IMG/VR virus record: IMGVR_UViG_3300023179_000011
Location: 96,001 to 160,000 of that record
Length of the DNA: 64,000 bases
Source of the DNA: a virus
Reading direction: 5' to 3' (one strand)
Positions 25,657-63,967 of the stretch are shown here, piece by piece (the first letter of the stretch is position 1; every line of letters begins with the position of its first letter). The translations under genes were made by a program, and so were the position numbers. The notes under the pieces are model-generated. The model searched no databases and was not told the DNA's origin. It saw only the letters and a program-made list of their open reading frames with translations.

Positions 25657-26046
25657 TCAGGATGCGCTTTGCAGAGCCGCGGCAGCAGCAGCTTGCAGCG
25701 TCAGAACAGCCTGCGCAATCGCAGGTTGATCCGCCGCTACGCTCGCTACGTCGCCGTAAGCAGCCGCCTTTTCACCAGTGCCGCCAAAGCCCGCGGCGGC
25801 AAGCATCTCGTCCAGCTGCTGGTTGGCAGCCGAGAGCGAGGAAGCTTGCGCAGCCGCGACCTTTTCTTGCTCCGCCGTGTAGAGCACATGAAGCTTGGAA
25901 GCAGCAGACCACATTTCAGCGGCCTCGCTCTCCGAACGCGGCTGGATGCCGTGCGCGGCAAGCTTCTCGAAGAAATACGGCGCGGCAAGTTCCGACACAA
26001 TTGTGGCGTATGCTTGCTCAGCCGCTTCTTTAACAGTATCAGACAT
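25657..26046 (-). CDS. Ala-rich head-associated hypothetical protein
   Basis: 129 aa with EKLAA, EKVAAA and EKAAA motifs; directly after the major capsid gene. Confidence 0.65.
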   Translation of the reverse strand: MSDTVKEAAEQAYATIVSELAAPYFFEKLAAHGIQPRSESEAAEMWSAASKLHVLYTAEQEKVAAAQASSLSAANQQLDEMLAAAGFGGTGEKAAAYGDVASVAADQPAIAQAVLTLQAAAAAALQSAS

Positions 26047-26080
26047 AACGTGCTCCTTTGGGTTTAATTCCTACACGGCA

Positions 26081-27022
26081 TCACTTGAAGTTAACGCGAG
26101 CCAGACCGTTGGTATGGCCGAACGAGCCACCCGAAGTCTGATAGGCGAAGTACTCAAGCATGTAAGCTTCACGACGGATGTACATCGTGGTGGGCTCCAG
26201 CTCGTAGTTCTTGCCGATGAACTTCGGCGACGCGAACATGAACAGCGAATCATCGGGGACAAGATCGCGCTTGATCGTGACGATCCAGCGGCAGTTGAGG
26301 AAGTTAGTCTCCGCCCAACCGTTCTTGATGATGTCCTGCGAGAAGTCGCCGCCCATTTCGTCACGGCCGAACTTGAGGAGTTCCTTGATCGTGATGTTAT
26401 TCACGAGGCAGGTTTCAACCTCGAAGTGCGACGGCGTGCGGGGCATGACCTTCAGCGCGTCAACAAGGGTCTCACGGGTGATGCCGCCCGAGATCTCCTC
26501 GTACTGCACAACGCCGCTGGCGACGTTGGCAACACCCGGAGTCGGGAGCACGGCGTTGAAGGCGGCAATAAACTTGCCGTCCTCTTCAGCCAGCATGTCC
26601 TTGATCATGTTGTCGCTGAGGACCTGACGGATGTCGATCACGTACGTACGCAGCTCGTCGACGTCCTTCACAGCGCGGGGCGACACGATCCGGTCAAACA
26701 TGACGCGGTAGCGCGGGCCACGGATGTAGAAGTTAATCGGGAGCGTCGCAAACGGGAGCGACACAGCCGCCGGGGAATCGGGCTCCTTGTCCACAACCTT
26801 GACGGGCTTGTCAGTGTCAACCTGACGGTCAAGCTCGTCGTTGGTGATGGTCAGCGGCGGCATAATCCGCCGGTAGAACCCGTCTTCACGCATTTTGGTG
26901 CGCGTGAAGTCGTTAACCGCGTCGATGGCCTGCTTCTGCATGCCGGGGGTGTCAAGCTGCTCAAAGAGCGTTTCGTTGAGCAGTTGGATCTCTTGCTGAG
27001 TGGGCATTTTGGGAACCTCCAT
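26081..27022 (-). CDS. Major capsid protein (HK97 fold, inferred)
   Basis: 313 aa; 'FTRTKMREDGFYRRIMPP' N-terminal pattern, position after protease and scaffold, extreme codon bias, AAGGA ribosome-binding site. Confidence 0.8.
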   Translation of the reverse strand: MEVPKMPTQQEIQLLNETLFEQLDTPGMQKQAIDAVNDFTRTKMREDGFYRRIMPPLTITNDELDRQVDTDKPVKVVDKEPDSPAAVSLPFATLPINFYIRGPRYRVMFDRIVSPRAVKDVDELRTYVIDIRQVLSDNMIKDMLAEEDGKFIAAFNAVLPTPGVANVASGVVQYEEISGGITRETLVDALKVMPRTPSHFEVETCLVNNITIKELLKFGRDEMGGDFSQDIIKNGWAETNFLNCRWIVTIKRDLVPDDSLFMFASPKFIGKNYELEPTTMYIRREAYMLEYFAYQTSGGSFGHTNGLARVNFK

Positions 27023-27046
27023 GTTCCTTAATTAGTTAGGGATAGG

Positions 27047-27625
27047 TCAGTCGATTGTGGCCGCAGTGCCCGCCGGCAGGTACACGCACCAGAAGGAAAG
27101 CGTGTCCACGCCATTGTGGTTCTTCGACGCGCCACTCGAAACAACACCGCAAACCGGGTTTACGTACTGCACGGCGTTGGCCTTCGTCAGCACACCCTCA
27201 ACGGCAGCGCCGCCAGTGGTGGGAGCAGTCAGAAGATCACCGGGGTTGTACGTCACCGCGCTACCGCCGGACGTCTTCACGTACTCGGTGGTGGCGATTT
27301 CATAACCACCGGTCGCAACAAGACCAGACAGCTTGCCCGAGGGCGAAACCGCTTGGTGCATGAAGTTACCGGCCGCTGTGGTACCCGGATTGCTGACGTC
27401 AGCATCCGTCGAACCGTTCAGCAAGAAGATCGCGACGCCCGTGGCCGACAGACCCGGAACGAACACGTCCTTACCGCCCTCTTTGGCGAGCGTTACGACG
27501 CGACCGCGCGGGACATCATACGTGACTGTGCTCGCCAGCTTGGCCGAGTAGTCAAGGGACGCCATATCGAACCAGCCCTTTTTAACGTCAAGGCCGTGTT
27601 CAAACATAAGATCAGGAGCAGGCAT
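27047..27625 (-). CDS. Putative head decoration / cement protein
   Basis: 192 aa before the capsid gene; 'YNPGDLLTAPTT...GVLTKA...VCGVVS' resembles the beta-tulip decoration pattern. Confidence 0.65.
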   Translation of the reverse strand: MPAPDLMFEHGLDVKKGWFDMASLDYSAKLASTVTYDVPRGRVVTLAKEGGKDVFVPGLSATGVAIFLLNGSTDADVSNPGTTAAGNFMHQAVSPSGKLSGLVATGGYEIATTEYVKTSGGSAVTYNPGDLLTAPTTGGAAVEGVLTKANAVQYVNPVCGVVSSGASKNHNGVDTLSFWCVYLPAGTAATID

Positions 27626-27680
27626 TGTTAGACCTCCGTGTCTTTCTCAATTGGAAACGTGTTCCGTAGGGGGGACGAAC

Positions 27681-28106
27681 TCAGGTAGTGGGCGGGTTAA
27701 GACCAAGGCCCGTAAACAGCTTTACGTCGGAAGCCTTGAGGCGACCATCGCGGGCACCCACATACCCGCTCGTCAGACTGGTCGTCGGGTCGTAGCTGGC
27801 GGCCTTTGTGGCAACCGGCGTACCCAGACGAGCCATTTCAGCTGCGTTTTTATGCGCAGCTAATTTGATAACAAGTTCCATCGTGCGCACCGGATCTTGC
27901 AGGGCGGCGGCAAGCGCCTCCTTCTGGTGCGCCTCGATCCGCTCGTTTTCCACGCACGCCTTGACGGCTTCGGGGATCAGGTGAGCCAGCTTTTCGCTGA
28001 CTTCAACCTGCGCCTTTTCGGCGGCGGCGGCTTTGGTCATCGCCGCATCGGAATAACCGATGTAGTCGATGATCTTATGTACGAGCGCGTTATTTTCGGT
28101 AGACAT
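27681..28106 (-). CDS. Head morphogenesis hypothetical protein (scaffold-like)
   Basis: 141 aa, helical and Ala-rich, with KAAAAEKA and TKAAS motifs and a GGAGG ribosome-binding site. Confidence 0.6.
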   Translation of the reverse strand: MSTENNALVHKIIDYIGYSDAAMTKAAAAEKAQVEVSEKLAHLIPEAVKACVENERIEAHQKEALAAALQDPVRTMELVIKLAAHKNAAEMARLGTPVATKAASYDPTTSLTSGYVGARDGRLKASDVKLFTGLGLNPPTT

Positions 28107-28122
28107 TAAAACCTCCGTGTGA

Positions 28123-29460
28123 TCAACGATTCACGAGTTCGAGAACGTGCTGCTTCATCATGTCCCGCAGCTGGCGCGAACGCTTTGTGCGGGCTTCTTT
28201 AACTTGGAACCTGCCAGCACGCTTAAAGTTTACAACAGCGCGACCGATGGCGTCTAAATCTTTAGCGGCAGCCATCTTCGGTTCTTCCATCGGCGGAGCA
28301 GCTTCAGGGGCGGGAGCGCCACCAGCAGCGTCGCCGCCGTCGGCGCCAGACAGCGCCTGCAGCAGAGCTTCCGGCGGAATGCCAAGTTCTTCTAACGCCA
28401 TCGCCAGCTCTTGCACGGCCTCGTCTTCCGACGGTTCGCCGCCGCCTACAGCAGCCGGGTCCATATCGCCGCCGCCTTCGGCGCCCATCATGGCTTCGAG
28501 CCCGGCGGGCGCGGCGTCAGCAGCCGGCGCGTCGCTGGCGCCAGAAGCAGCGTCTTCAGGCGCGGAGTGGTCCTCGCCTTCAGCGGCCTCTTCGGTCGGA
28601 TCAGCAGCCGCGGCTTTGGAATTCAGAAAACCGATGAACAGGTCAGCCATCTCGTCGGCTTCGCGAATCGTGTTAGCGCACACTTCACGAACAGACGCCT
28701 CAGCGGCTTCTTTGTTTATGCCGAGCTGCGCAGCAAGCTCGTAGCCAGCCTTGAACGCGGCAGCCTTACCCTCGCGAAGAGCAGCAAGATCAGAACCCTC
28801 GATCTTGCCGTTATCGTTTACGTCGAGCTTGTGCTGGTCGCCTTTGAGGTTGCTGCCGACGTGCTCGCTTCTCTCTTCAGCGGGGGTTTCTTTTTTTTCT
28901 TCGGCTTTTTCTTTTAGAAAAGCCGGCATCTCGGCCGCCTTCTCGTTGTTCAGTTTGCTAGTGCCGAAGTTAATGAGGTTGGCCAGAATGTCGTTACCGA
29001 GGGTGCCGGCACGTTCGCGGGCTTCCTTGAACGTAACCGAGCTGTACTTCTCGCCGTCATTGGCCTTGACCGGCGACGACGTGCCCGGGTCATCCTTATC
29101 ACCCTTGAAATCTTTTTCATTGGCCGGATCTTCACCGGTCGCTTTGGCAGAGACACCGATGTTCGTCTGCACTTCGTCTTGACGACCTTCTTGCGACATC
29201 TCCGGTGTGTTGTCTACAGCAAGAGCGCCCTGCTGCTTCTTGATGTCAGCCTCATACTCGCTTGCGCGCGCACCAGTCGAAGCGTTCTGCACGCCATTGT
29301 CGGCGCTAGTCGTCGGGTGCGAGGAGGCGCCTTGGTATCCGCCCGGATCAGCAGGCACGGGGCCGGCAGACTTCTCAGCCGCAGTCTTTACAGGACTCTG
29401 CGCAATCTCAGCGGCAAGAGCATTAAGTTGATCGAACAGTGAACGTTGCATCCGTGCCAT
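28123..29460 (-). CDS. Putative prohead scaffold / core protein
   Basis: 445 aa, acidic and low-complexity, between protease and capsid genes; many K-x-A motifs. Confidence 0.65.
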   Translation of the reverse strand: MARMQRSLFDQLNALAAEIAQSPVKTAAEKSAGPVPADPGGYQGASSHPTTSADNGVQNASTGARASEYEADIKKQQGALAVDNTPEMSQEGRQDEVQTNIGVSAKATGEDPANEKDFKGDKDDPGTSSPVKANDGEKYSSVTFKEARERAGTLGNDILANLINFGTSKLNNEKAAEMPAFLKEKAEEKKETPAEERSEHVGSNLKGDQHKLDVNDNGKIEGSDLAALREGKAAAFKAGYELAAQLGINKEAAEASVREVCANTIREADEMADLFIGFLNSKAAAADPTEEAAEGEDHSAPEDAASGASDAPAADAAPAGLEAMMGAEGGGDMDPAAVGGGEPSEDEAVQELAMALEELGIPPEALLQALSGADGGDAAGGAPAPEAAPPMEEPKMAAAKDLDAIGRAVVNFKRAGRFQVKEARTKRSRQLRDMMKQHVLELVNR

Positions 29461-29503
29461 GACTTTCTCCTTTGGGGTCTAATCGTTTCCGATTAGCTTC
29501 CGT

Positions 29504-30961
29504 TCATGTGACATAATTTTGCAATACACAGTGGTTTGCTGTCAACCAATTGTTTCCGTATTTCTCGCAGATGGCGGCATAAGCAGCGATCTTATACAAC
29601 GCGTAATGTTGCGCAAGAGCTGTTTCTGCTTTTCCACTCGCTTGCTTGTCGGACGGAAACTCAATTGCCCGCGCGTTACGAAGTGCAGCCAAGTATGCAC
29701 GCTTCTCAACGTTAACGGGTAATACGCTATGTGTGTGTGCTACCTTTTCAGCCCACACGCGCGCACTTTGCGGCGCCGCATCAGCTGGAAAGTATACGTT
29801 GTTTTCAAGTAGCGTGACGACATCCGCGTCGTTGGCTAACTTTGAAAACACGTTAGGCAGCGCATACGCAACTGCACTAACAAGTGTGGCGTTAGCTGAC
29901 TTAACTGTCAACGCTAAAAAATCTCGCAAGGGCAAGATTACTCCAGCGTCAGCCAGCCCGCGTAACACCGCAGCCATTTTAACAGACGGAGCGTTATTTG
30001 TATCAATAGGCGGTTGAACTTCGTTGGCGCTGGCCAGAGCCGCCTGCGCCCAGTTACCGCCGGCGCCTGCATCCTTTTCCGCCTGCGCAAGCTGAGTTAA
30101 AGCTTCAAGCTGCAGCTGAACACGGGCTGCCGGGGTGCGCCCTAGGTCAAAGCCGAGCGGCGCAGTAATACCAAGCTGTTCAGCGAGTTCAGCCCCGGAA
30201 ATGCAACTAGTCGAGGCGGCCTTTTGCAACTGACCAGACACGTAGGCAATGCGGTCGGCCGGGCGGAATACGTGACTGATATCAAAAAACGTCGGATTGG
30301 GGTTATCGGCATGTAGCACGTGTCCGTCTTCCAGCACCCGACCCATATTGTGCTTTAAACCGCCAGCTTTGCAGTGGCCGCCGTTCTCGATAGAGTCGCA
30401 ATACTCGGCCCGCGTTTTGGCCGAATTGCCGCACGACGAGCACTTGTCAAACGGGATCTTGCACGCCATCGAAACGGCGATTTCTTTGTCGTTGGCCAAC
30501 TTTTCAAGTTCTTTGTCGGCAATCAGGCCGCCATTTCGGTCTGCCGCTTCTTTCGAGCCGTTTAGCGCCACAACCAGCTCGATACGCTTCATGGGTTCGT
30601 GGTATGCACTGGCCTTTACAATACCGAAGCTTTTGGCCGGGTTCTTGTTGGCATGGTCACGGTAAAAGCGCGCAAATTTTTCAAACGTCTGGTGGTAGTT
30701 CCTGCAGCAATCACGCGTAAAACCGTCGCCGTTACGGTTCGGGCCGTAATCTTCCGTGGCGCCAATCGCAATCATGTGAACCGGCACTTCGTCCTTGGCA
30801 AACTTGATATTTTCAAGCTTGTGCGCAAACTCAGCCCCGGCGCGTTTCACAAGTTCTTGCTTGTCGGTGCCGATAATGCCGCGGCTCGATACTTTGATCA
30901 GCGCGGCAACCGGTTCGCTAAAGTCTTGCGAGTGCGGCTGGATAACTTTGATCATGCTCAT
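29504..30961 (-). CDS. Prohead maturation protease with a Zn-finger insert
   Basis: 'GPNRNGDGF', 'YRDHAN', 'SMACKIPFDKCSSCGN' and 'FFDISHVFRPADRIA' resemble HK97/herpes-fold capsid proteases; lies upstream of scaffold and capsid. Confidence 0.75.
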   Translation of the reverse strand: MSMIKVIQPHSQDFSEPVAALIKVSSRGIIGTDKQELVKRAGAEFAHKLENIKFAKDEVPVHMIAIGATEDYGPNRNGDGFTRDCCRNYHQTFEKFARFYRDHANKNPAKSFGIVKASAYHEPMKRIELVVALNGSKEAADRNGGLIADKELEKLANDKEIAVSMACKIPFDKCSSCGNSAKTRAEYCDSIENGGHCKAGGLKHNMGRVLEDGHVLHADNPNPTFFDISHVFRPADRIAYVSGQLQKAASTSCISGAELAEQLGITAPLGFDLGRTPAARVQLQLEALTQLAQAEKDAGAGGNWAQAALASANEVQPPIDTNNAPSVKMAAVLRGLADAGVILPLRDFLALTVKSANATLVSAVAYALPNVFSKLANDADVVTLLENNVYFPADAAPQSARVWAEKVAHTHSVLPVNVEKRAYLAALRNARAIEFPSDKQASGKAETALAQHYALYKIAAYAAICEKYGNNWLTANHCVLQNYVT

Positions 30962-30963
30962 GT

Positions 30964-31947
30964 TTACTCTCTCGCAGAGGAACCGCCGAGACTGTTAAGC
31001 AGCGCCGGGACGCCAAGAGCGCCTAAAACCGGCAACCCGATTCCCGCCCAATGTCCGCCTACGCGCGGCATGTTACGGAGCGCCTGTCGCAGGCCCGTAC
31101 CGGTTAGCTTACGGCCAGCCTTACCTACGCCAGATGCGTTCTCCGCCGCAATCGCTGCTAACACGTTGGCGGCGTCGTCCGCGTTACGACCCAGCGCGCC
31201 GCCTAGAAAATTACCCCGCGCGGCGCGGGTCGCAGCATTTACGCGCCCAGTGACAGCGGCAGGCGTTGTAATACCGGCGGTTTCAAGCGGCAAACTCACG
31301 TCGCGCGGAACATAGTCGGCGCCGCGCAGGCGGCGGAGGCTATTGAGAATTTGTTTTGTCAGCGACGGGTCATTTTTTGCTTCTGGTAATTTGCGCAAAT
31401 GCTTTGTGAGATTATTTGTTACACGCGTAGGGCCGCTGTTCGCGCGAAGTTGCTCAACCGTTGGTTTTAACTGTTTTGCCGCTTCATCGCCGGAGGCTAG
31501 AAACCTATCCATCTTGCCGTACGCGTCCAGCGAATTTGCGGCCTGCCTGCCGCCGTACGCGCCGGCGCCTGCGCCAGCGATGTTCAACAGCGCATTACCA
31601 GCAGAGCCGTCTTGATTTTTTGCAGCAGCGATTGCGGGCGGCGGCGTTGTTTTGGTCAGCAACATGTTCTTTGCGGCTGTTGCGCCCAGCCCGCCGATGC
31701 CGCCCATTAGCGCGTAATCGAGCATCGCGCGGCGTTTCTTTTTACCCTGTAACGCGCCAATTAACCCGCCAGCACCGGCACCCAGCGCAGCGTTCTGAAG
31801 ATACGGGTTACTTAGAATTTGCGACAGGTCGGCCTGTTTGCCGAGTTCGGCTGTCACTGCCGCGACTTTCTCTACGGCAGGATCGGGGGTACGAGTCGCA
31901 ATCGCGGATAGACCGCGCGCAAGTTCTTGTAGATTTATTGACGACAT
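30964..31947 (-). CDS. Gly/Ala-rich putative internal head or ejection protein
   Basis: Likely start MSSINL at 31947; EKVAA and GKQAD motifs followed by glycine-zipper hydrophobic segments. Confidence 0.55.
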   Translation of the reverse strand: MSSINLQELARGLSAIATRTPDPAVEKVAAVTAELGKQADLSQILSNPYLQNAALGAGAGGLIGALQGKKKRRAMLDYALMGGIGGLGATAAKNMLLTKTTPPPAIAAAKNQDGSAGNALLNIAGAGAGAYGGRQAANSLDAYGKMDRFLASGDEAAKQLKPTVEQLRANSGPTRVTNNLTKHLRKLPEAKNDPSLTKQILNSLRRLRGADYVPRDVSLPLETAGITTPAAVTGRVNAATRAARGNFLGGALGRNADDAANVLAAIAAENASGVGKAGRKLTGTGLRQALRNMPRVGGHWAGIGLPVLGALGVPALLNSLGGSSARE

Positions 31948-31948
31948 A

Positions 31949-33334
31949 TTACACCAAACCGCGAGCATGAATCTGTGATTCGAGATTGTTTTTTAACGCT
32001 TCAGCGCGAATCTTTTCCATTTCAACAAGCTGCTTAATATCAAAATCAGCCAGCTGACCAGCTTCAAGACGCTTGCGCAGCAACGCCTGCATAGCAGCGC
32101 CAGATCCAGTGAAGTTCGGCGCAATCTCAGCGATTTGATTGTAAGCCGTTGCAATCTCGTGCGGATCGTAGCCGGAGATTACAGGGTCGTTCAAAATTAA
32201 ATCGTTTAGCACGCCGCGCGATTTAATCTGCTGTAGTTTGTTCTCGTGCTCGGCATCTGACATGCGCATATACGCTTTTTGTTTTTGCGCCAGCGGATTA
32301 GTAGCTTTTTCTTCGTTAGCGCCCATCTCACTTGCGATGCCCTTGGGGCTCATGAGCTTACCGAGGTGCCCCATCGTCCCGCTGTACGATGTCAGCGGCG
32401 GAGCTGATTCCGTATCTGGTTTTTTTTTATCTTTAACCGCCGCCACCTTAAGGGCGAGCGGCGCTGTTTTCGGATCATGCAGAATAGAACCGGTAACCGT
32501 CGCGGGCGCGCTCTTTTTTTCAACAGTCGGTTGGTTTAGCGCAGCCAACTTGCTCGCGGCGTCGTTGCGCAGCTCGACGGCTTTGATCACATTTTCAACA
32601 AGCGTCACGACAGGTAGAGAACCAAAAAAGTTCTCGTTTGTGGCGGCTTGTTTTGTGAAGTGCGGATAGACGGCAGCGATCTTGTTTAATGTTGAAACGC
32701 CGATGTCGCCAAGCCGTAACCCGACTTCGCGAACAGCGTCGGAAAACGACATGTTGCCGGGCACGCGAAAATATTGCGCCAACTCTTCCATGGCCGAAGC
32801 CGCTTTGTGGTGGGAAACTGTCGCCAGCCGCCGCACCTCGTCAGCCTCGCGACGCGTGGCCTGCTTTTCGCTATAAGCCCGCCGCGCCGCAGAGTGGTCG
32901 TCGCGCGGTGGCGGTACATATGTGGGCGCAGGTAGTACGCTCTTCGCGGCAGCGGCTTTGTTTAAGCTTTCATTCCGTCGGGCGATAAACCCACGCGGCG
33001 ACACAGCGTACTCAGTCGAGATGATGCTGTTATTTGTTAATTCAGCAGAGGTTTTGACGTTTTTCGGATAAAGCGCATCCATGACGACGTTAACATCGGC
33101 GAGCTGGAAATCTGCGGCTTTTTCCAGCGTTGTCTCGCCCAGTTCGCGCTGCTTGTTTGTGCGTCCGGTGTTATAGGCGTGCACCATGAGATTGATGTGC
33201 CCAGCAGGAATTCCGGCGTCACTTGCGCTTTTGATAATAGCGGCGTTTGGCGTAGACCCGTCGTTGACCAGAGTGGCCGCACGCTCAATTGCGCTCAGCA
33301 ATTTTTGCTCAGCTTCTTTACTTAATGCCCGCAT
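31949..33334 (-). CDS. Putative internal head / core protein
   Basis: 461 aa, helical, with repeated K-x-A motifs (IKSAS, EKAAD, NKAAA, TKQAA, LKVAA). Confidence 0.55.
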   Translation of the reverse strand: MRALSKEAEQKLLSAIERAATLVNDGSTPNAAIIKSASDAGIPAGHINLMVHAYNTGRTNKQRELGETTLEKAADFQLADVNVVMDALYPKNVKTSAELTNNSIISTEYAVSPRGFIARRNESLNKAAAAKSVLPAPTYVPPPRDDHSAARRAYSEKQATRREADEVRRLATVSHHKAASAMEELAQYFRVPGNMSFSDAVREVGLRLGDIGVSTLNKIAAVYPHFTKQAATNENFFGSLPVVTLVENVIKAVELRNDAASKLAALNQPTVEKKSAPATVTGSILHDPKTAPLALKVAAVKDKKKPDTESAPPLTSYSGTMGHLGKLMSPKGIASEMGANEEKATNPLAQKQKAYMRMSDAEHENKLQQIKSRGVLNDLILNDPVISGYDPHEIATAYNQIAEIAPNFTGSGAAMQALLRKRLEAGQLADFDIKQLVEMEKIRAEALKNNLESQIHARGLV

Positions 33335-34265: not shown

Positions 34266-34648
34266 TAGCGCAGCGTCGGCGTGTCGACGGTAACGGAAAA
34301 GACCAGCGTCTTCGTGGCGGACGGCGTAATCTTCAGATACAGATATCTTTGCGGATTTGTCGGCGTACCGTCGCGGTTCAAGTACGAAACGTCTAGGTTA
34401 TTTGTAAACGGCGTCGTCTGGTCAAACGATAAGACTTTGAACGTATCGGCTGGCAACTCGCTGTTTGGCGCCTTATCCTGCTTGCTAGAGTAAAGCGTTG
34501 CTGTGAAGTTGCCGGTCGCACCGCCCGACGCCTCAACGAGACTGTAACCCTTGAGAATGCCGCGATGCGGCATAGGCACCGCGACCGTTGTGGCCGTGCC
34601 GCTGTTGGCTGTAAATGTAACGCTACCGGACCATACTGTGCTGGGCAT
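34265..34648 (-). CDS. Small beta-rich hypothetical protein
   Basis: 127 aa, Thr/Ser-rich beta-sandwich-like; its stop overlaps the next start. Confidence 0.6.
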   Translation of the reverse strand: MPSTVWSGSVTFTANSGTATTVAVPMPHRGILKGYSLVEASGGATGNFTATLYSSKQDKAPNSELPADTFKVLSFDQTTPFTNNLDVSYLNRDGTPTNPQRYLYLKITPSATKTLVFSVTVDTPTLR

Positions 34649-34657
34649 ATTTCACCT

Positions 34658-37039: not shown

Positions 37040-37120
37040 GGCCAGCCTCCATGCTGCGCTCAAAATTGGACACAGTACTAATTTACTGCGCCGAAGTCTC
37101 TATATCCTACAAAAACGGGT

Positions 37121-45608: not shown

Positions 45609-45977
45609 TCACCTTTCTGGTCGGTAGAGACGTAACTTCCTGTTTGTCTTAGCGCGGGCGGCGTACGCCTTGTAGGCGGCGGCGAGTTCGCGAGCTTTCA
45701 AATCTTCCTCGTCGATTTCGGGCTCTGTTATCTTGCCGGCGACGTGCCCGGCGAGCCCGCCGCCGATCGTGGCGAGCATAAGCGGCGTATACGCGATATT
45801 TCCAAGCGCAGAGGCCGACGAAGAAATATCTGAAAAAGACGGTAGCTGAAACGCCGCGCTTTTTACAAATACTTCAGCTGCTTTGACACGCAGATCGAGC
45901 GCGGCACCTGTTAAATGCTCTTCGGCGCAGCGGCGAAGAAACCCGAGTTTAAAAGCTTCTTTTTCGTTGACATCCAT
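45609..45977 (-). CDS. Small putative internal head protein
   Basis: Likely start MDVNEKEAFKLGF at 45977; VKSAA followed by the glycine zipper 'LATIGGGLAGHVAG'. Confidence 0.6.
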   Translation of the reverse strand: MDVNEKEAFKLGFLRRCAEEHLTGAALDLRVKAAEVFVKSAAFQLPSFSDISSSASALGNIAYTPLMLATIGGGLAGHVAGKITEPEIDEEDLKARELAAAYKAYAARAKTNRKLRLYRPER

Positions 45978-45978
45978 G

Positions 45979-51881: not shown

Positions 51882-52151
51882 TCAGCTTAAACCAAGTAAA
51901 AAACGAACAAACACCAAAATCCACGCTAATACGCCACTGATAGCAAAAAAAACAACAACCGCGCTTAGGCTTATCACGCGCCCAAGCTGCTGAATTGGAA
52001 TGTCTTTCAACAGTCGCCACGCTTTGAGGTAATCAATCGCGCCCGGCTGCTTCGGGGGCGTGGGCGCAGGTGGAGTGTTTGGTTCCGGCGTGACGGGATC
52101 TTTTTTACGTCCGAGCAGCCCGCGCAGCCGGTCGAGTAGCGAGTCAGCCAT
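51882..52151 (-). CDS. Small protein with a C-terminal membrane helix
   Basis: Likely start MADSLL at 52151; C-terminal 'LSAVVVFFAISGVLAWILVFVRFLLGL'. Confidence 0.6.
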   Translation of the reverse strand: MADSLLDRLRGLLGRKKDPVTPEPNTPPAPTPPKQPGAIDYLKAWRLLKDIPIQQLGRVISLSAVVVFFAISGVLAWILVFVRFLLGLS

Positions 52152-53805
52152 GGTTCTTTCCCCAGTTTTTGATTGTGTCGAAAACATCGTTGCCGTAAAG
52201 CTGGGTTGCTTTATCGAACATGTTCATCTGCGGCAGCGTTCCAGTCGCGGCAGCTTGGGCCATTTGATAGCGATACTGCGGATCGAGCATTGACCGGTAC
52301 TGGTGCGCTTTCATTCTCGACGCCAGAATAAAGTCGCCGCGCTGTTTGGCTTTTAACAGATGATCAACCACATTTTCGTACACGGGTTTGTTGTGGTCGA
52401 ACACAAACGGTGTGCGAAAATTTAATAAATTGCCAAACTGCTGCGCATACACACTGTTCTCGGCCGCTTTGACCTGCGAACCGATGACACCGCGCGGAGC
52501 ATGAAACCGAAACTTTGTCGGCGTATGGGTGATACCCTTGTACTTTGGCTTTGGATCATCAACGTGCCAGTCCTGCGGCGATTGCGCGATTAATCGCCGC
52601 AAGATTTCATGCTTGCGGTCGTATTCGCGGCGGTCGGAGTGCGTTTTCGCGCTACGCAGCTCGTCAAGAATGCTGGGTTTCTTTTTTTCTGGCTGCGCGG
52701 CGGATGATTTGATGCCGCCGATGGTCGTATTTGAAATCGGCGGCGACGCGGGCAGGGCTGAAGAATTAACAACGGGGGTTGTTCCGCCGTTTGGTTTTGA
52801 TTGTTGCTGCATCCCGCGGCGAATCTGACCGGGCGGTGTTGTCACAATTTTAAAGGCTTTGCCGTGCCACTGATCAAAATCAATTGGATCCTGAGCACCC
52901 TTCTCTATTTCTTTGACTTTTTCGTAGTACTGCGGATCTTCGGACAGGTGATCCTTGGCAATTTCTTTGGCAACTTGATCGTTTCTTGTGTGTTCGTGCT
53001 CATGTTTAGCTCCTTCGGCTAACGAGTCAGCAGAAAATTCCCGATCGGGTAAATTATCACCTTTTCCGCCCGCTAACAGGTCTTTTTGTCCCGAGCGGGA
53101 AAAATTTGTACTTTTGGCCGCCGTATTATCCCGTACGGGAGTGTTGCTAGCGGCTTTCAGCTCTCCCCTACTGATGGGGTTACTAAACCGATGCCCTTCG
53201 TCACTTTCGGCAGGGGTTTCGTAACCCTTGGCTTTGCCGTTGTCGAGAAGAATGCCCTTGCGGCGGGCGGCTACCGTGATGTGGAACGGATGATCGTCGT
53301 TCGGGAGCGCGGATAAGCCGTAGCTCTTGCGAAGCGCCGATAAAGCCGGGCTGCTGACCTGAATCGCCCAGACTTTGCTGACGCCGTCGACGTTTTTGAC
53401 GTCAATCTCTTTCAGCCCGCCGAGCGTGTAACCAAACATGTGGCCGCGCTCGTTAATTTTGTCGGCGCCAATAGACGCAACCTCGTCCGCCGTCATCACC
53501 GATATATGCGCATTTACAATGTGCGCTTCGACGTTTGGGACGTTGAAGACGCCAGCCGTCGGAAGTTCGGTTCCGGGCTCAACCAGCGCGTCGAACACAC
53601 CACGGACAAGGGCGTTCGGTACAGATAACAAAAGCCAGCCGGACTTGGCGAGATAGAGCCGGCCGGCGAGCGGGTAACTTGTGGCCGCCTGCTTGTTGCC
53701 GCCACGATACAGCCAGCCGAGCGCGTTGCCGGCGGCGTAGGCAGGATGCTCGCGAAAGTATTGCGGGTCCCAAGCGATCGGATCGAGTGCTGAGAGGCTG
53801 TCCAT
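52144..53805 (-). CDS. Multidomain protein with an N-terminal 2H phosphoesterase and a DUF5661-like module
   Basis: Two 2H motifs 'AHISV' and 'FHITV'; later 'EGAKHEHEHT...AKEIAKDHLSEDPQYY'; domains separated by K-x-A linkers. Confidence 0.75.
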   Translation of the reverse strand: MDSLSALDPIAWDPQYFREHPAYAAGNALGWLYRGGNKQAATSYPLAGRLYLAKSGWLLLSVPNALVRGVFDALVEPGTELPTAGVFNVPNVEAHIVNAHISVMTADEVASIGADKINERGHMFGYTLGGLKEIDVKNVDGVSKVWAIQVSSPALSALRKSYGLSALPNDDHPFHITVAARRKGILLDNGKAKGYETPAESDEGHRFSNPISRGELKAASNTPVRDNTAAKSTNFSRSGQKDLLAGGKGDNLPDREFSADSLAEGAKHEHEHTRNDQVAKEIAKDHLSEDPQYYEKVKEIEKGAQDPIDFDQWHGKAFKIVTTPPGQIRRGMQQQSKPNGGTTPVVNSSALPASPPISNTTIGGIKSSAAQPEKKKPSILDELRSAKTHSDRREYDRKHEILRRLIAQSPQDWHVDDPKPKYKGITHTPTKFRFHAPRGVIGSQVKAAENSVYAQQFGNLLNFRTPFVFDHNKPVYENVVDHLLKAKQRGDFILASRMKAHQYRSMLDPQYRYQMAQAAATGTLPQMNMFDKATQLYGNDVFDTIKNWGKNHG

Positions 53806-55260: not shown

Positions 55261-56295
55261 TCAAAGAATCTTGGCGGCAATCAGACATCCGCGCGCAACA
55301 GCGTGCAGCGGATCTTTAGCGTGACGAACTTCTTTCACAGGAAGAGGGAAGCCGTTCTCTTCCAACTTCTTGGTGAACATTTCGACGAAGCCTTTTGCGC
55401 GCGTTGTGCCGCCGGCTACAGATATCAAAATCGGCTCTTTGAACTTTGGGAGCGCTTTGTGGTCGCGCAGCGCAGCAGCCAGCTGCTTCGTTGTATAGTC
55501 GATCAGACGCTCGTAGTACACGCTCACGGCGGCAAGAATCGCGTTGTCGCCCCCGCCCTCGCCGATGACAAACGTGCCGTGCTCTTTTTCCGCTTGCACG
55601 ACCGAATCCGGCTCGTTTGTTGCTACGGCCGTCATGCGATCGATCCAGTCGCCGGACTTCGTCGTCGAGAACAGCACTGTTGGCTCGCCGTTAAGCATCA
55701 CGCATACGTTCACCATGCCGGCGCCCCACGACAGGCCGATGCCGGTGTAATCGTCATGTTCCAGCTCTGAGTAGCACAGCGCCTCGGCTTCGTTAATAGC
55801 GCGTGCGGCGTAACCCTGCTCCGCCAGCACAGTGCGCACGACGTCTTCGTGGTACGCGACGTCAAAATCGTCGTCTTCTTGATCGACGGGCTGCGCCGGC
55901 ACGCAAAAGATCAGCTTTTCATTAGGCTGGCTCGCTGTTCCGACCACTTCCTTGAGAATAAACGCAAGTACGCGTTTCGCTTCTTTTTCCTTCGGGCTAA
56001 CCACGCCGCGAAACATAGGGCGCTTAGCCGAGTCATTGCGCTCGACGGCCTTCTCGATGGCGTCTTGGCCGAGAATGATAAAACTTCCGTCGGCGTCTTT
56101 AACGAAAACCTTGCCCTGCAGGCCCTTTTCGATCATTTTTGTGGCCACGGGTGTCGTCGGCTTGATGACGTAAAAAGCATCGCGAAAGTCTTTGTACTGC
56201 ACGTTGCCGACCACGTGAGGGTCGGTTGTAGAGTTTGCGGCGGCGTCTTGGGCCAGCACGATAAACGATGTTCCAACGTCGAGACCTTTGGCCAT
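55261..56295 (-). CDS. Actin-like ATPase (MreB/ParM/FtsA superfamily)
   Basis: Phosphate-1 'GLDVGTS', connect-1 'INEAEA', phosphate-2 'SWGAG', adenosine 'VAGGT'. Confidence 0.85.
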   Translation of the reverse strand: MAKGLDVGTSFIVLAQDAAANSTTDPHVVGNVQYKDFRDAFYVIKPTTPVATKMIEKGLQGKVFVKDADGSFIILGQDAIEKAVERNDSAKRPMFRGVVSPKEKEAKRVLAFILKEVVGTASQPNEKLIFCVPAQPVDQEDDDFDVAYHEDVVRTVLAEQGYAARAINEAEALCYSELEHDDYTGIGLSWGAGMVNVCVMLNGEPTVLFSTTKSGDWIDRMTAVATNEPDSVVQAEKEHGTFVIGEGGGDNAILAAVSVYYERLIDYTTKQLAAALRDHKALPKFKEPILISVAGGTTRAKGFVEMFTKKLEENGFPLPVKEVRHAKDPLHAVARGCLIAAKIL

Positions 56296-59423: not shown

Positions 59424-59424
59424 G

Positions 59425-60166: not shown

Positions 60167-62482
60167 CTATTCGTAGTAAAAAGGATTACGAACATTTGGA
60201 ACATACGAACGCGCTGTTTGGGCAGCGTTGGTTACCCCGCGCCGCACATCATTTGCTGTATTTACGACCGCATTCCGTGCCGTACCGTATGCGGTTCCCG
60301 CGGCGTCGCCAATCGCTGCGCCGGTGTTGTGAATGCCTTGGCCGATTGCTTGCGGAACTGCCGCGGCAGCTTGCGCGGCGTTATTTACACCACGCCGCAC
60401 ATCATTGGCTGTGTTTACAACAGCGTTGCGTGCCGCGCCATATGCTGTTCCCGCGGCGTTGCCAATTGCAGCGCCGGTGTCGTGAATGCCTTGCGCGGCG
60501 GCGGCGCCTGTATTGTAAATACCGCGGCCGGCGGCCATTGGTACTGCCGCAACAGCTTCACCAACACCCGAACCGAATTGCTGCGCCGAGCTAATGTACG
60601 GATCCACGACAGGTGCTGTAGCGCGATACGCACCATACGTCGCGCCGGCAGCAATCGGCACGGCGGTCGCAGTGCGGGCGGCGTTCATCATTGTGCTGCC
60701 CGGAACCTGTGTGCCAGCCCAGCGAGCGACGTTTCCGGCGCCACGGGCAACCTGACCGGCGCCGTACATACCGGCGCCCGTTGCCGCGCGAATGCCGCCA
60801 CCGACAGCGTTACCTACGCCGCCGCGCATCATTTGTTGCGCCCCGCCGCGAGCCATCTGCGCGCCGCGATTTACGGCAGCCGAGCCCAGCTCGCCGGCCG
60901 CGGCGCCTGTCGCACGACTTATCGTGCGCGCCGTACCAGCCATGGCGCGGCCGCCCCCGCGGGCCGTCGCGCCGAGACCTTTGCCGAGAGCTTTGACACC
61001 AGCAGTAAAAAGACTGCTCTCTTTTTCACCGTGCGACTGCTGCGCGTTTGTTGCGTCTGTCGGCACAGGACTGAGCGCCGAGCGTTGCTTGTCGTCAATG
61101 ATCTTATTGCTGCCGCGCGCACTCGGCGTGCAGCTCATTTCCGTTGTGCCGCGAGGCGCACTGGAGCGCGCTTTTTTCTCTTTCTTATCTTTCTTCTTGC
61201 TGCCGACCGGGCGACACGAATCATTGCTGTAGGGCTTTTTGCCCGGCACCGGCTCATACCCTGTCCAGCACCGACCAGCTGCTTTGCCGAACTCTAGCGC
61301 CGAGCCCTGCTTGATACCCGTTGTGCTCGCGTTTTGCAGCTGCGGCATGAGCTGTTCAATGATATTTCTATTGTGGGTCAAAAAGTCGTACATCTGCCGC
61401 GCTTGTCCGCTGCTCATGTTGGGATCCCGTCCCATAAGCATCGTGGCGCCGAACTCGGGGCTCAGCTGGCTTAGAGCGTTGATTTGATCCATCGGGCCGC
61501 GGCCGCCGCCCAACATGCTGTACAAGCCGTTGGCGCCCTGACCAACCATCCGGCGTGCGCCGTCGCCAAACATGCCAGCTCCGGCGGCGCCCAGACCAGC
61601 TGCGCCAAGGCCCAGCGCGCCAAGACCCGCGCCTAAACCGGTGTTCCCGCGGCCGCCCATGAACGCGCCGGCGAGCGCCAGCGGAACACCGGCGCCAATT
61701 GCGTAACGCGCCTCGATCGGCAGGCTGTTCCACATGCCCATCAAGCCGCCGTTATTGGGATTCGCTTCGGCGTGCTGCGCAGTAGACATCTGTGTATTCA
61801 TCTGCTGCGCGCCAATATTTTCTGCCGTCGGTTCGCTGCCGATGCCCATAGCTTTGCCGGCGTAGTGCATGCCAGCTGCGCCTGCGCCCGCACCGACCGC
61901 TAAATTCAGTGGATTGCGCGCGTTTGTCATTGCGGACGAGCCGCCGCCCATCCACTCAGGAAGGTGCTTCGCGGCGGCTTGTGTGCGACCGATCGTGCGA
62001 TCGCCCCAACGTTGGCCTGCCGGCACCGCGGCGTCACTCATGAAACTAGAGACAAAATCGTCAGCACGATTCAGACCGCGGCGCATGGTATTCATCGTGC
62101 GTTGACCAAGACCGCCAACAGCGTCAACCGCTTGGCCGGCGAGTCGTCCGGGCGTGCCGTGATACAACGACGCGGCCTGCCCTTGGGCTGCGCGAGCCGC
62201 CGCGTCAAGACGGCTTGGCCCTGTCGGTTTCGCGGTGAGGGGCACAGCTTTGTAACGGTCTTTGAGCGGAATGGTCAGCGGATCGACTACGTTTTGGCGC
62301 ATGCCGCGTTGATAACCACGTGTGGCGCTCGTGCCGCGATTGACGAGTTGTTTTCCGCCGCGCACAGCGTCATCGGCAAGACCTGTTACGGCTTTGGTCC
62401 CGGCGCCAAGAATATCGCGCAGTAACTTATTTGCTTCTTTTTCGTGCCCGCCGATGTGTTGACCAAACTCATATGCGTTCAT
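60167..62482 (-). CDS. Large Gly/Ala-rich putative internal head polyprotein
   Basis: MNAYEFG...EKEA N-terminus, glycine zippers, a 'CWTGYEPVPGKKPYSNDSC' module and a C-terminal tandem repeat. Confidence 0.65.
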   Translation of the reverse strand: MNAYEFGQHIGGHEKEANKLLRDILGAGTKAVTGLADDAVRGGKQLVNRGTSATRGYQRGMRQNVVDPLTIPLKDRYKAVPLTAKPTGPSRLDAAARAAQGQAASLYHGTPGRLAGQAVDAVGGLGQRTMNTMRRGLNRADDFVSSFMSDAAVPAGQRWGDRTIGRTQAAAKHLPEWMGGGSSAMTNARNPLNLAVGAGAGAAGMHYAGKAMGIGSEPTAENIGAQQMNTQMSTAQHAEANPNNGGLMGMWNSLPIEARYAIGAGVPLALAGAFMGGRGNTGLGAGLGALGLGAAGLGAAGAGMFGDGARRMVGQGANGLYSMLGGGRGPMDQINALSQLSPEFGATMLMGRDPNMSSGQARQMYDFLTHNRNIIEQLMPQLQNASTTGIKQGSALEFGKAAGRCWTGYEPVPGKKPYSNDSCRPVGSKKKDKKEKKARSSAPRGTTEMSCTPSARGSNKIIDDKQRSALSPVPTDATNAQQSHGEKESSLFTAGVKALGKGLGATARGGGRAMAGTARTISRATGAAAGELGSAAVNRGAQMARGGAQQMMRGGVGNAVGGGIRAATGAGMYGAGQVARGAGNVARWAGTQVPGSTMMNAARTATAVPIAAGATYGAYRATAPVVDPYISSAQQFGSGVGEAVAAVPMAAGRGIYNTGAAAAQGIHDTGAAIGNAAGTAYGAARNAVVNTANDVRRGVNNAAQAAAAVPQAIGQGIHNTGAAIGDAAGTAYGTARNAVVNTANDVRRGVTNAAQTARSYVPNVRNPFYYE
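60212..60560 (-). repeat. Intragenic tandem repeat, 153-bp (51-aa) period, about 2.3 copies
   Basis: CGCCGCACATCATT occurs at 60240 and 60393; protein unit '...GIHNTGAAIGxAAGTAYGxARNAVVNTANDVRRGVxNAAQxA'. Confidence 0.85.
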
Positions 62483-62630
62483 GAGTGTTCTCTTCCTGTT
62501 TTGTTATTTGTGTTGGCGCTGGATAACTACACCGACCGCCTTCGCAACATGTTTCCAAAATAATGTGACAGAACGGACATACCAGCTTGCCGCGAATTTC
62601 AATGCCGCGGCTTTCACACTGCGGGCACAT
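62469..62630 (-). CDS. Small Cys-rich zinc-ribbon protein (53 aa, not in the ORF track)
   Basis: ATG overlaps the upstream stop (TAATG); MCPQCESRGIEIRGKLVCPFCHIILETCCEGGRC... Confidence 0.75.
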   Translation of the reverse strand: MCPQCESRGIEIRGKLVCPFCHIILETCCEGGRCSYPAPTQITKQEENTHERI

Positions 62631-63262
62631 TACCACTCAAACTCCACCGGCTTGCGCGTCTTATAGCTGAAGTTAACATCGAGTGGCGATTGAAAGCGCA
62701 CGTTAGGTAGCGGAAGTTTGGGCGCCACGGCAGCGGTACCGCCGAGCAGTCCAGCCGCCGCAAGTGTCGGAACGCCGAGCGGAGCATCGCCTACTGCGCG
62801 CACACCCTTACCAACAGCCTGCAGCCCCTCGCCGGCTAGGTTCACCGCATGCCCGGCGCCGCGTACCGCAGAGCCGCCTAGTCTCATGCCGTGACCAAGC
62901 ACGCCGCGAATATCGCGGGTCGTGCGCGTGCTGCCGCTACCAATGTTGTTAATCATGCGCTTACCGGTCGTCTGCATGCCGCGACCTGTGCCCAATAGCA
63001 AGCCGCCAAGACCAGTCGAGTTACCAAGGCTAGTCCCGTCTTTAGGGCTGAACGTGGGCCGAGCCTTCGAGCCGACAATCTCGCCGGCGCCCTGTATGCC
63101 TCGGCCGAAACCTTTGACGACGCTCTGCGCGCCCCGATTGATCGTCTGCGCCCCACGGCCGATGCCAGACGCCGCGTTGGCAAGCCTCGCAACAATCTTT
63201 TCAAACCCGCCCGCCTGTTTTTCTAGCCGGCCGACGCTGTATCCAAACTCATACGCGTTCAT
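62630..63262 (-). CDS. Gly-rich putative internal head protein
   Basis: MNAYEFGYSVGRLEKQA N-terminus, then a basic Gly-rich body; AAGGAG ribosome-binding site. Confidence 0.65.
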   Translation of the reverse strand: MNAYEFGYSVGRLEKQAGGFEKIVARLANAASGIGRGAQTINRGAQSVVKGFGRGIQGAGEIVGSKARPTFSPKDGTSLGNSTGLGGLLLGTGRGMQTTGKRMINNIGSGSTRTTRDIRGVLGHGMRLGGSAVRGAGHAVNLAGEGLQAVGKGVRAVGDAPLGVPTLAAAGLLGGTAAVAPKLPLPNVRFQSPLDVNFSYKTRKPVEFEW

Positions 63263-63280
63263 GCTTACTGCTCCTTGATA

Positions 63281-63967
63281 TTAAAAGCTAGCCAGCGGGG
63301 TGTTCGCCTGCCCGCCGCCGTAGATACCGGGGCCGCTGGGCTGAAACTGTTCCGCCTGCTGTCCGCCGCCGACACCCATTGCGCTCATGCCCAAACTTCC
63401 CGCCGCGCCGGCAACTGGCAGGACAAAAGGCGCCGCTTGCATCGGATTTTTAATTCCGGCGTTATAAACTTTACCCATCATGCCCGGATTTTGAACTGTT
63501 GGGAGCACTTTCTGAATGCCGCCGCTCAGTGCGCGATTCGCGTTATTGACCGCGGCGGTGCCCTTGGTCAAAAACTGTTGCGAGCCGCGCGTGAGGGCTC
63601 TGCCTGTGTTCGTGAAGCCCGCGCGCGCGAGTTGTTTTCCGCCGCCGGCAATTGCGCGCCCGACGCCCTTGGCTGCGAAACCCCAGCCGGGAATAAAGCT
63701 CAGCGCGCCGCTCAAACCAGCCATGCCGGCGTCCATAAAGCGGCCGTTGTACAAATGGCGAGATACGTCGTTAATAGCTGTCGGAACGCCGGTGAACGGA
63801 TTTGAATATAGCGCCGTGTCAGCGATCAAACCGCGTTGAGTGGGATCGCCCATCGGATTGATCTGGCTCATGGTCGAACCAGTCCCTAGTACTTTGTCAC
63901 CAAGAGCATTCTGCGCCCGTTTTTCCGTTGCCATACCAACGCGATACCCAAATTCATATGGTTGCAT
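63281..63967 (-). CDS. Putative internal head protein with a pre-toxin TG-like segment
   Basis: MQPYEFGYRVGMATEKRA N-terminus; 'DAGMAGLSGALSFIPGWGFAAKG'. Confidence 0.6.
   Translation of the reverse strand: MQPYEFGYRVGMATEKRAQNALGDKVLGTGSTMSQINPMGDPTQRGLIADTALYSNPFTGVPTAINDVSRHLYNGRFMDAGMAGLSGALSFIPGWGFAAKGVGRAIAGGGKQLARAGFTNTGRALTRGSQQFLTKGTAAVNNANRALSGGIQKVLPTVQNPGMMGKVYNAGIKNPMQAAPFVLPVAGAAGSLGMSAMGVGGGQQAEQFQPSGPGIYGGGQANTPLASF

Follow-up and report, generated by a model that had tools for sequence, protein, structure and literature searches.

Known head proteases and cargo tags

The T4 head protease cuts its substrates at L/I-x-E. Herpesvirus assemblin recognizes V/L-x-A|S at its release and maturation sites, and both rules, like that of phage SPN3US, take the form P3-x-P1. 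Encapsulin cargo-loading peptides are short Gly-rich tags, usually C-terminal and uncleaved, that attach to the inside of a shell built on the HK97 fold. In the cleavage logo of SPN3US gp245, Ser is favored at P1', and proteases of the gp245 type have their C-terminal extension removed (PMC10052503). For Salmonella phage Arash, the virion mass spectrometry is reported as coverage only, its 116 “virion” proteins include obvious contaminants, and the paper nowhere mentions a protease or cleavage. The multi-omics paper on phage G names gp19 as the head maturation protease and does not give cleavage sites. Head maturation is uncharted in Arash, phage G, and the cluster C mycobacteriophages, and no report of a K-x-A rule for a phage protease was found in the literature searched.

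The window analyzed here is a stretch of 64,000 nucleotides (positions 96,001 to 160,000 of IMG/VR record IMGVR_UViG_3300023179_000011) from the 199,845-bp genome of an uncultured phage. This phage belongs to a large uncultured family, with Arash as the closest cultured relative. Positions are those of the window, and the features located below all lie on the (-) strand. A first-pass annotation had proposed that many unrelated head proteins share a short leader followed by K-x-A, which the head protease would cut to load and mature a large modular cargo; the peptides it quoted are all found at the genes it named.

The protease and its gene neighborhood

The genes run from the protease through the scaffold-like protein and two small proteins to the capsid protein, an order identical to that of Arash gp222–226. 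The position of the protease gene beside the scaffold and major capsid genes is a trait expected of assemblin-fold capsid maturation proteases and is shared with T4 gp21. A multisubunit RNA polymerase is encoded among the head genes, as in the giant phages that carry phiKZ gp175 and SPN3US gp245 and have a virion RNA polymerase.

The prohead protease (29504..30961) was assigned from its AF2 fold, the conservation of its homologues, and its K-x-A content. Its N-terminal catalytic domain (about residues 16–246) has the assemblin fold with a Cys4 insert, and its C-terminal half is helical, K-x-A-rich, and about 240 residues long; the insert and this half are both differences from T4 gp21. The AF2 model of the N-terminal domain, built from 106 sequences, has a pLDDT of 87, and its best structural match is T4 gp21 (MEROPS S77; Foldseek probability 0.99; VIA Z 10.0, rmsd 3.1, 140/164 residues aligned). 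The fold is also common to the herpesvirus proteases (MEROPS S21; Z 6.3–8.3), namely those of VZV (8.3), PRV (7.9), HSV-2 (7.0), and HCMV (6.3). Judged from this model, the protein is most likely an assemblin-fold serine protease of the T4 gp21/herpesvirus type, in agreement with the role given to it in the first-pass annotation. Across the 106 homologues H103, S164, C174, C177, C188, and C197 are invariant, and the putative catalytic His and Ser (H103 and S164, 61 residues apart) keep their order. The inteins of protease homologues are inserted beside S164-M-A-C.

Unlike the fold, the sequence does not place the protease with T4 gp21: no Pfam family was matched at E<=0.01, the N-terminal domain had no match among solved structures, and the sole PHROG match was 2774, “unknown function.” There is likewise no detectable sequence relation to phiKZ gp175 or SPN3US gp245. 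Sequence matches of the C-terminal half to ribosomal uL29 among solved structures were spurious. The whole protease, folded from a shallow alignment, gave a pLDDT of 65 and no significant structural match, and the N-terminal domain fold was used instead.

The protease contains 14 K-x-A motifs against 5.1 expected from within-protein shuffles. One of them, K247-A-A249 (30215..30223), is predicted to be where the protease cuts itself; it falls in the disordered linker (residues 239–253, pLDDT <50) that follows the catalytic domain. It is kept in 80% of the 106 homologues, and it is here that phage G gp19 and Arash gp222 cease to be homologous. A cut here would release the catalytic domain, after which the protease would be degraded. 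Such self-release from a C-terminal extension is predicted to resemble that of herpesvirus assemblin, and phiKZ and SPN3US also have a protease with a C-terminal extension.

The K-x-A motif in the head genes

Expected K-x-A counts were taken from within-protein shuffles, which retain the composition of each protein. Genome-wide, the motif is at chance level (335 versus 332 expected), with head-module genes heading the enrichment list. As the first-pass annotation had anticipated for a comparison with shuffled controls, the head side is enriched, with 118 motifs against 86.6 +/- 8.4 in the genes from 25302 upward (rank 2 of 400 a-x-b motifs), and the tail genes are marginally depleted (31 versus 41.5). 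The excess is located in 25657–37063, the genes around the protease. Over the whole range for which the code had been claimed, the raw enrichment is modest (z ~3.4) and tied with L-x-N. This modest figure, together with a leader consensus drawn up after the sequences were seen, could suggest an artefact of composition or chance, with the motif simply picked out of proteins rich in Lys and Ala. However, that explanation is hardly credible: the observed count stands above shuffles that preserve composition, the conservation test described next is independent of composition, and the pattern is replicated in Arash, in the relative G001, and in 105 protease homologues, so that the artefact reading is already contradicted.

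In orthologue alignments of the core head genes, no i,i+2 pair is better conserved than K-x-A (n=49, rank 1/118, MWU p=6e-14), whereas K and A at gaps of 0, 2, and 3 are ordinary (ranks 79/124, 40/119, and 44/118). Lys within K-x-A has a conservation of 0.77 against 0.57 for other Lys, and Ala 0.76 against 0.55. Numerous sites are kept amid variable flanks with the middle residue free, and the extended logo has L/F at P5, E/V at P4, and A/S at P1'. The same alignments gave K-x-A no special conservation in the RNA polymerase genes, in 50865–51875, or in most genes of the 46–60 kb block, which are ordinary non-structural genes. Several genes that had been called cargo lack conserved K-x-A sites.

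The major capsid protein (26081..27022; 28% identity to that of Arash, 64 IMG/VR relatives) carries a candidate maturation site, K30-Q-A32 (26927..26935), near its N-terminus. K30 and A32 are invariant in all relatives at 56–100% identity while P4 and P2 vary, and the Arash capsid protein has VKEA at the equivalent place. Between the protease and capsid genes lies the gene for an acidic, Ala-rich, scaffold-like protein (28123..29460), with 10 K-x-A sites against 5.5 expected and a mean pair conservation of 0.76 for K-x-A against 0.45 for other pairs. A small head-module protein (27681..28106) has 6 sites against 2.0, of which sites 81 and 101 are conserved at 94–97% with a free middle residue. 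Another K-x-A-rich head-module protein (31949..33334) has 12 against 5.0, with a pair conservation of 0.65 against 0.28 and several sites kept within variable flanks. The Ala-rich protein encoded downstream of the capsid gene (25657..26046) has four, conserved at 0.75 against 0.43. Searches of Pfam and PHROGs returned nothing for the scaffold, the capsid protein, or the leader carriers described below.

Taken together, K-x-A is probably the P3-x-P1 cleavage rule of the head protease. This reading rests on sequence patterns: selection with a free middle residue; concentration in the protease, in scaffold-like proteins, and at the N-terminus of the capsid protein; and recurrence of the pattern near the homologous proteases of Arash, phage G, and Myrna. 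The motif thus behaves as the protease recognition code that the first-pass annotation took it for. Inside the prohead, the protease would cut after the Ala of [L/F]-[E/V]-K-x-A | [A/S], with Lys as P3, P2 free, and Ala (Ser or Gly at times) as P1. The scaffold-like proteins 28123–29460, 27681–28106, 25657–26046, and 31949–33334 would be fragmented, and the capsid protein would probably lose about 32 N-terminal residues. We infer every such cut, the position of each scissile bond, and any packaging from these patterns.

An alternative is that no cleavage occurs at K-x-A and that it serves a group of helical assembly proteins rich in Ala, Lys, and Glu as a structural or binding element, kept for the sake of folding or assembly, for example in helix packing or partner recognition. 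Its carriers are Ala-rich and predicted to be helical. The conserved sites at K39, K95, and K154 of the protease, among the best conserved, lie within helices of the folded catalytic domain, so part of the conservation may be structural. In addition, K-x-A is about as frequent in the 1467-aa RNA polymerase subunit as chance predicts; this lack of avoidance also means that, on the cleavage reading, the tripeptide alone would be insufficient for cutting. A purely structural role is nevertheless improbable, since it does not sit well with the conservation of the i,i+2 spacing alone, the free middle residue, one site in a disordered linker precisely at the end of the catalytic domain, and another that is invariant at the capsid N-terminus. 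The motif also accompanies the protease family across very distant phages, and its distribution parallels the known T4 and phiKZ-type codes.

As a cleavage rule, K-x-A would share features with each of the described systems. Like the T4 motif, it is a three-residue P3-x-P1 motif abundant both in scaffold proteins and within the protease, but its P3 is basic rather than aliphatic and its P1 is Ala rather than Glu. Herpesvirus assemblin also has Ala at P1 and a small Ala/Ser at P1'; unlike here, its P3 is Val/Leu rather than Lys, its substrates have two sites rather than many, and its host is not a bacterium. As in phiKZ and SPN3US, the motif is found on many head proteins. Their rule (S/A/G-x-E) differs in having Glu at P1, and no x-x-E motif ranked among the enriched pairs in this genome, so Glu at P1 is not what is found. 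The RNA polymerase subunits here also differ from theirs in having no conserved N-terminal site.

Recurrence in other phages

Among 234 Arash ORFs, gp220, gp225, gp223, and gp222 are four of the top five in K-x-A enrichment. The protease of G001, a relative with 68% capsid identity, has 19 K-x-A motifs against 4.9 expected, and an excess is seen in 105/105 protease homologues (mean 13.2 versus 3.6). Phage G gp19 has 8 against 2.4; the capsid protein of phage G, counting against the code, lacks the motif. Myrna gp97 has 15 against 7.3, along with 16 R-x-A against 8.1. This assemblin-fold head protease branch comprises >3,600 clusters at 50% identity, including phage G, Arash, and the cluster C mycobacteriophages.

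Should the protease indeed cut by K-x-A, sequence alone would suffice to predict mature head proteins, propeptides, and scaffold fragments. If true, the rule would cover a protease family of thousands of metagenomic phage clusters in addition to Arash, phage G, and the cluster C mycobacteriophages. It would also tie the assemblin-fold proteases of the bacterial branch to those of the herpesvirus branch through their common P1 Ala.

The leader peptide

The leader has the consensus x-[A/P]-[Y/F]-[E/D]-F-G-x-x-[V/I/L]-G, with E-K-x-A a few residues later. It stands at Met1 only in three tandem genes, all Gly/Ala-rich. These encode a 771-aa protein (60167–62482; leader M-N-A-Y-E-F-G...E-K-E-A, 62432..62482), a 210-aa protein (62630–63262; M-N-A-Y-E-F-G...E-K-Q-A, 63212..63262), and a 228-aa protein (63281–63967; M-Q-P-Y-E-F-G...E-K-R-A, 63914..63967). 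The match to the leader is strong in these neighboring genes, and two or three further genes have a looser one. In two carriers it is not N-terminal, lying about 50 residues in for one whose gene is beyond the window and at residues 22–40 (53686..53742, ending in K-Q-A) of the 2H-SAK/DUF5661 protein 52144–53805, so named from Pfam. This internal motif is kept in most of 22 aligned orthologues, with K-x-G replacing K-x-A in some. One orthologue whose start seemed to coincide exactly with the predicted cut proved to be a contig-end truncation and was dropped. All carriers have E/x-K-x-A/S/G 3–9 residues after the leader. The leader with K-x-A occurs 5 times in the genome against 0.10 in shuffles, a flattering figure since the consensus was derived from those very sequences.

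The leader is conserved at the level of protein and not of DNA. In the 210-aa carrier, which has a Shine-Dalgarno sequence upstream, all 16 orthologues, whose identity goes down to 46%, retain M1, F6, G7, E14, K15, and A17 without change, and the leader codons vary synonymously. In relatives, 36 ORFs bear the leader and join it to mature parts of about eight families, some of them encoded elsewhere in the genome. The leader also looks like the best-conserved part of the scaffold-like protein, the unit K-A-A / AFKAGYELAAQLGIN / K-E-A (28705..28767), which has a K-x-A site on either side and is recognizable down to 23% identity. The best local alignment of the scaffold with Arash gp223 falls at this unit and is not significant (E 3.1), making it a lead only.

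The reading favored here, on balance, is that the protease cuts at K-x-A and that the leader, a copy of the scaffold-like protein's most conserved unit, would serve as a tag that docks its carrier or addresses it to the capsid and is removed at the K-x-A behind it. It would then be a functional analogue of the T4 capsid-targeting sequence. For the leader by itself, capsid targeting is proposed tentatively. Like the tag of T4 IPI–III and Alt, it would be a short N-terminal tag that ends in a putative cut motif, but in sequence the leader (about 17 residues, Y-E-F-G...E-K-x-A) is unrelated to that tag. It also recalls the encapsulin tags, being a short small-x-x-hydrophobic-small peptide on otherwise different proteins, beside an HK97-type shell protein with an N-terminal helix.

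A rival that shares the K-x-A code gives the leader no address function. The leader would be either the conserved N-terminus of a small clade-specific Gly/Ala-rich family of glycine-zipper proteins that may be membrane-active, or only an extended element for substrate docking, through which the K-x-A beside it becomes a good site. The genes of the three strong carriers are neighbors, and the proteins are alike in composition and repeats; the 62630 and 60167 proteins are 40% identical over about 57 residues, so that the words “unrelated” and “many” had overstated the case. The leader is also confined to the closest sub-clade, genomes with at least 96% capsid identity. Relatives with <=90% capsid identity lack both it and the carrier genes and still have the K-x-A code and the scaffold unit. 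No homologue of the 210-aa carrier or leader-like tag was found in the distant relatives G001–G005 and G009–G014, the ESM Atlas returned nothing for that carrier, and an all-against-all comparison of N-termini (blastp-short) gave no shared N-terminal tag in Arash or G001. On the other side are the eight or so downstream families that carry the leader in relatives, 95-aa and 183-aa proteins at other loci included, its likeness to the scaffold's most conserved unit, and the K-x-A/S/G always at a fixed short distance behind it. We regard this rival as rather unlikely, though it deserves serious weight. The claim of a shared leader thus survives in narrower form, as a conserved element that heads several proteins in relatives and has three strong carriers here; the large modular cargo was not borne out.

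A bolder version joins the two parts of the favored reading. K-x-A (R-x-A in high-GC hosts) would be the specificity of the whole protease branch, and the clade's cargo would enter by way of a cleavable tag imitating the helix with which the scaffold itself binds the shell. Such a tag would combine the T4 targeting sequence with the cargo-loading peptide of encapsulins. This version is rather unlikely. One could consider the leader a small candidate tag for loading foreign proteins into capsids, and it hints at a simple evolutionary route to such tags, the copying of the scaffold's docking unit.

A looser match to the leader is found in a small protein whose N-terminus reads M-D-V-N-E-K-E-A-F-K-L-G-F... 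(45918..45977). Here the K-x-A stands before the F-K-x-G-F motif, the same arrangement as in the scaffold. The start and motif of this protein are conserved down to 26% identity, and in pair conservation its K28 site ranks at the 0.91 percentile.

Genome setting

The virus record is a single sequence of 199,845 bp, of which the window is bases 96001-160000, and the minus strand holds all of the window's genes. IMG/VR has 64 or more related loci with capsid identities of 56-100%, and most of them are on contigs of about 200 kb. The named relatives of the capsid protein (26081-27022) and the candidate prohead protease (29504-30961) are remote: Salmonella phage Arash, the nearest cultured relative, and three Vibrio phages, at 27-38% identity. 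Phage G gp19 is a further match to the protease domain, as are proteins from cluster C mycobacteriophages and Gordonia phages.

The head module contains a split multisubunit RNA polymerase, made up of a 1467-aa fusion of beta with the N-terminal part of beta' (39981-44384) and a 626-aa C-terminal beta' part (37121-39001), both on the minus strand. The polymerase is probably packaged in the virion, since mass spectrometry of Arash virions shows the homologous beta subunit in greater abundance than any other protein (PMC10585845). The gene at 5287-6108, here among tail and baseplate genes, encodes a homologue of Arash gp10, a protein with a sigma factor annotation that was detected in Arash virions.

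Conservation of Lys-x-Ala in the head genes

The first-pass annotation held that the tripeptide Lys-x-Ala (K-x-A) is frequent in head proteins and sparse in the tail. Against shuffles within each protein, the genes from 25302 upward do carry an excess (118 observed vs 86.6 +/- 8.4) and the tail genes do not (31 vs 41.5 expected). In the head set, K-x-A ranks second of 400 a-x-b motifs, tied with L-x-N, so the raw enrichment over the whole range claimed is only moderate. The excess is confined to particular genes, with the count over the whole genome matching expectation (335 vs 332). The highest enrichment is in the protease itself (14 vs 5.1 expected), 31949-33334 (12 vs 5.0), 27681-28106 (6 vs 2.0), 34658-37063 (11 vs 5.9) and the scaffold-like protein at 28123-29460 (10 vs 5.5).

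Orthologues with up to 88% identity were taken from IMG/VR loci and aligned, and each i,i+2 residue pair of the reference was scored for both residues being kept. Among the 118 pair types with at least 8 sites in the eight core head genes, K-x-A (49 sites) comes first in conservation, with a mean within-protein percentile of 0.80 (Mann-Whitney p = 6e-14); Lys and Ala at spacings of 0, 2 and 3 rank 79 of 124, 40 of 119 and 44 of 118. Lysine conservation is 0.77 within K-x-A vs 0.57 elsewhere, and alanine conservation 0.76 vs 0.55. At many sites the Lys and Ala are kept while the middle residue and flanks drift. In 27681-28106, for instance, the pair at site 101 scores 0.97 and its middle residue 0.12; in 31949-33334, the pair at site 296 scores 0.71 and its flanks 0.30. 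At the capsid site K30-Q-A32, every relative has the same Lys and Ala, with P4 and P2 variable. A logo from 39 conserved sites reads L/F at P5, E/V at P4, K at P3, free at P2, A at P1 and A/S at P1'.

The simplest account of this pattern is a P3-x-P1 recognition rule with a predicted cut after Ala, the scissile bond being placed there purely by analogy. Such a rule would join a herpesvirus-like P1 Ala to a basic P3. In the literature searched on phage head proteases, the cleavage rules are L/I-x-E for T4 and S/A/G-x-E for phiKZ and SPN3US, and a Lys-x-Ala rule was not found. Against the cleavage reading, several conserved sites (K39, K95 and K154) fall within helices of the folded protease domain as modeled, and the RNA polymerase subunits have K-x-A at chance frequency and without special conservation, so context must matter.

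Outside the window, the genome's strongest K-x-A excess (13 vs 3.3, mostly as E-K-x-A-A) belongs to an ORF at genome positions 75115-76356, on the plus strand and 20.9 kb before the window start. It is probably a further substrate of the protease, encoded away from the head module. The portal homologue (genome 4121-7036, 971 aa) has no K-x-A at its N-terminus. Compared with the Arash portal it has about 390 additional residues, and its C-F-H-G-E-T-R stretch could indicate an intein.

The protease

Curated protease families give no sequence-level match to 29504-30961. A model of its N-terminal 270 residues, built from 106 sequences (pLDDT 87), has T4 gp21 as its top structural match (Foldseek probability 0.99; VIA Z 10.0 over 140 residues, rmsd 3.1); next come the VZV, pseudorabies, HSV and HCMV proteases (Z 6-8.3). 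Residues H103 and S164 are invariant among homologues. Homologues about 870 residues long have an intein (Hint plus LAGLIDADG) directly after S164-M-A-C, an insertion seen in L058:4722-7334 and in about 30 of the top 150 profile matches. Inteins typically occupy functionally critical sites, so an insertion next to S164 fits a catalytic role for this residue. Unlike T4 gp21, the domain has an insert at residues 172-200 with four invariant cysteines (C174, C177, C188 and C197), a probable zinc ribbon. K247-A-A249, present in 80% of homologues, falls where the catalytic domain ends and where the model has its single disordered stretch; at the matching place, the enzymes of T4, the phiKZ type and herpesviruses free themselves from C-terminal extensions.

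Lys-x-Ala in other phages

A profile search with the protease domain recovered 3,621 clusters at 50% identity, and K-x-A is in excess in all 105 homologues examined (mean 13.2 vs 3.6). In a relative with 68% capsid identity (G001), the protease has 19 vs 4.9, and in phage G, gp19 has 8 vs 2.4. The phage G portal begins ...AKQAAS; the phage G capsid protein has no K-x-A. Arash has K-x-A at expectation genome-wide (241 vs 249), and its gp220, gp225, gp223 and protease gp222 are four of the five most enriched among 234 ORFs. All four adjoin the capsid gene. TKQA, TKSA, QKQA, KKQA and VKEA occur in N-terminal regions here, and in the Arash capsid protein the Ala of V-K-E-A is at about residue 27. 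Mycobacterium phage Myrna gp97 (L131:8977-12612) has K-x-A at 15 vs 7.3 and R-x-A at 16 vs 8.1. This protein is annotated as a tape measure, yet its N-terminus is homologous to the protease and its gene lies directly upstream of that for the major head protein.

A short leader shared by several proteins

The first-pass annotation also proposed a short leader followed by K-x-A on unrelated proteins, and all the peptides it quoted are present. Its consensus plus K-x-A occurs five times vs 0.10 in shuffles, a flattering figure because the consensus was built from the same sequences. The leader is clearest in three adjacent minus-strand genes (60167-62482, 62630-63262 and 63281-63967), whose products start M-x-[A/P]-Y-E-F-G-x-x-[V/I]-G-...-E-K-x-A. 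These genes have upstream Shine-Dalgarno sequences and show synonymous codon variation between relatives. Alignment of 16 orthologues, down to 46% identity, shows M1, F6, G7, E14, K15 and A17 of the 210-aa protein (62630-63262) to be invariant. Past the leader, the three proteins have little in common except a Gly/Ala-rich, glycine-zipper-like composition. They may be distant paralogues.

Looser copies occur at residues 22-40 of 52144-53805, at about residue 50 of the gene just past the window, and at the N-terminus encoded by 45609-46043 when read from the Met at 45977, with F-K-L-G-F coming after K-x-A. The protein encoded at 52144-53805 has a 2H phosphoesterase "Swiss Army Knife" domain and DUF5661 after some 40 residues with the leader-like motif and a K-Q-A site. 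The scaffold-like protein has a further copy at residues 232-252 (K-A-A / A-F-K-A-G-Y-E-L-A-A-x-L-G / x-K-x-A), and no other segment of that protein is as well conserved, down to 23% identity.

In relatives, 36 distinct ORFs carry the leader, and their mature parts form about eight BLAST families. Some, including 95-aa and 183-aa proteins, lie at other genome positions, and the leader is thus somewhat portable. Its DNA pattern matches only genomes with at least 96% capsid identity, at two to three copies per genome, and both leader and carrier genes are missing from G001 and from relatives with capsid identities of 90% or less. A search of Arash for a shared N-terminal tag found none. An attractive reading is that the leader would be a cleavable tag mimicking the scaffold's docking unit, allowing co-assembly into the prohead, which fits the T4 precedent; candidate partners for it are the inner face of the capsid, the scaffold and the protease. 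Equally simple is that a small clade-specific family has the leader as its N-terminus, or that the leader is a mere extended docking element for the protease. This window contributes the leader, together with its resemblance to the scaffold unit.

Other proposed cargo genes

A cargo cluster at 46-60 kb is not supported, as the genes of this block encode a volactin homologue, a matrixin-type peptidase with a peptidoglycan-binding domain, PhoH, dCMP deaminase, a ferritin-like protein and a methyltransferase. The K-x-A sites claimed in 50865-51875 are not conserved, and in 39232-39960 and 44388-45245 only single sites stand out. The peptidase (49178-50005) is an M10 matrixin-type metallopeptidase fused to its peptidoglycan-binding domain. 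The actin-like protein at 55261-56295 is a full-length match to Pfam Volactin (7.5e-63) in a phage genome, and in one relative the volactin homologue has a leader-bearing gene of 95 aa immediately upstream.
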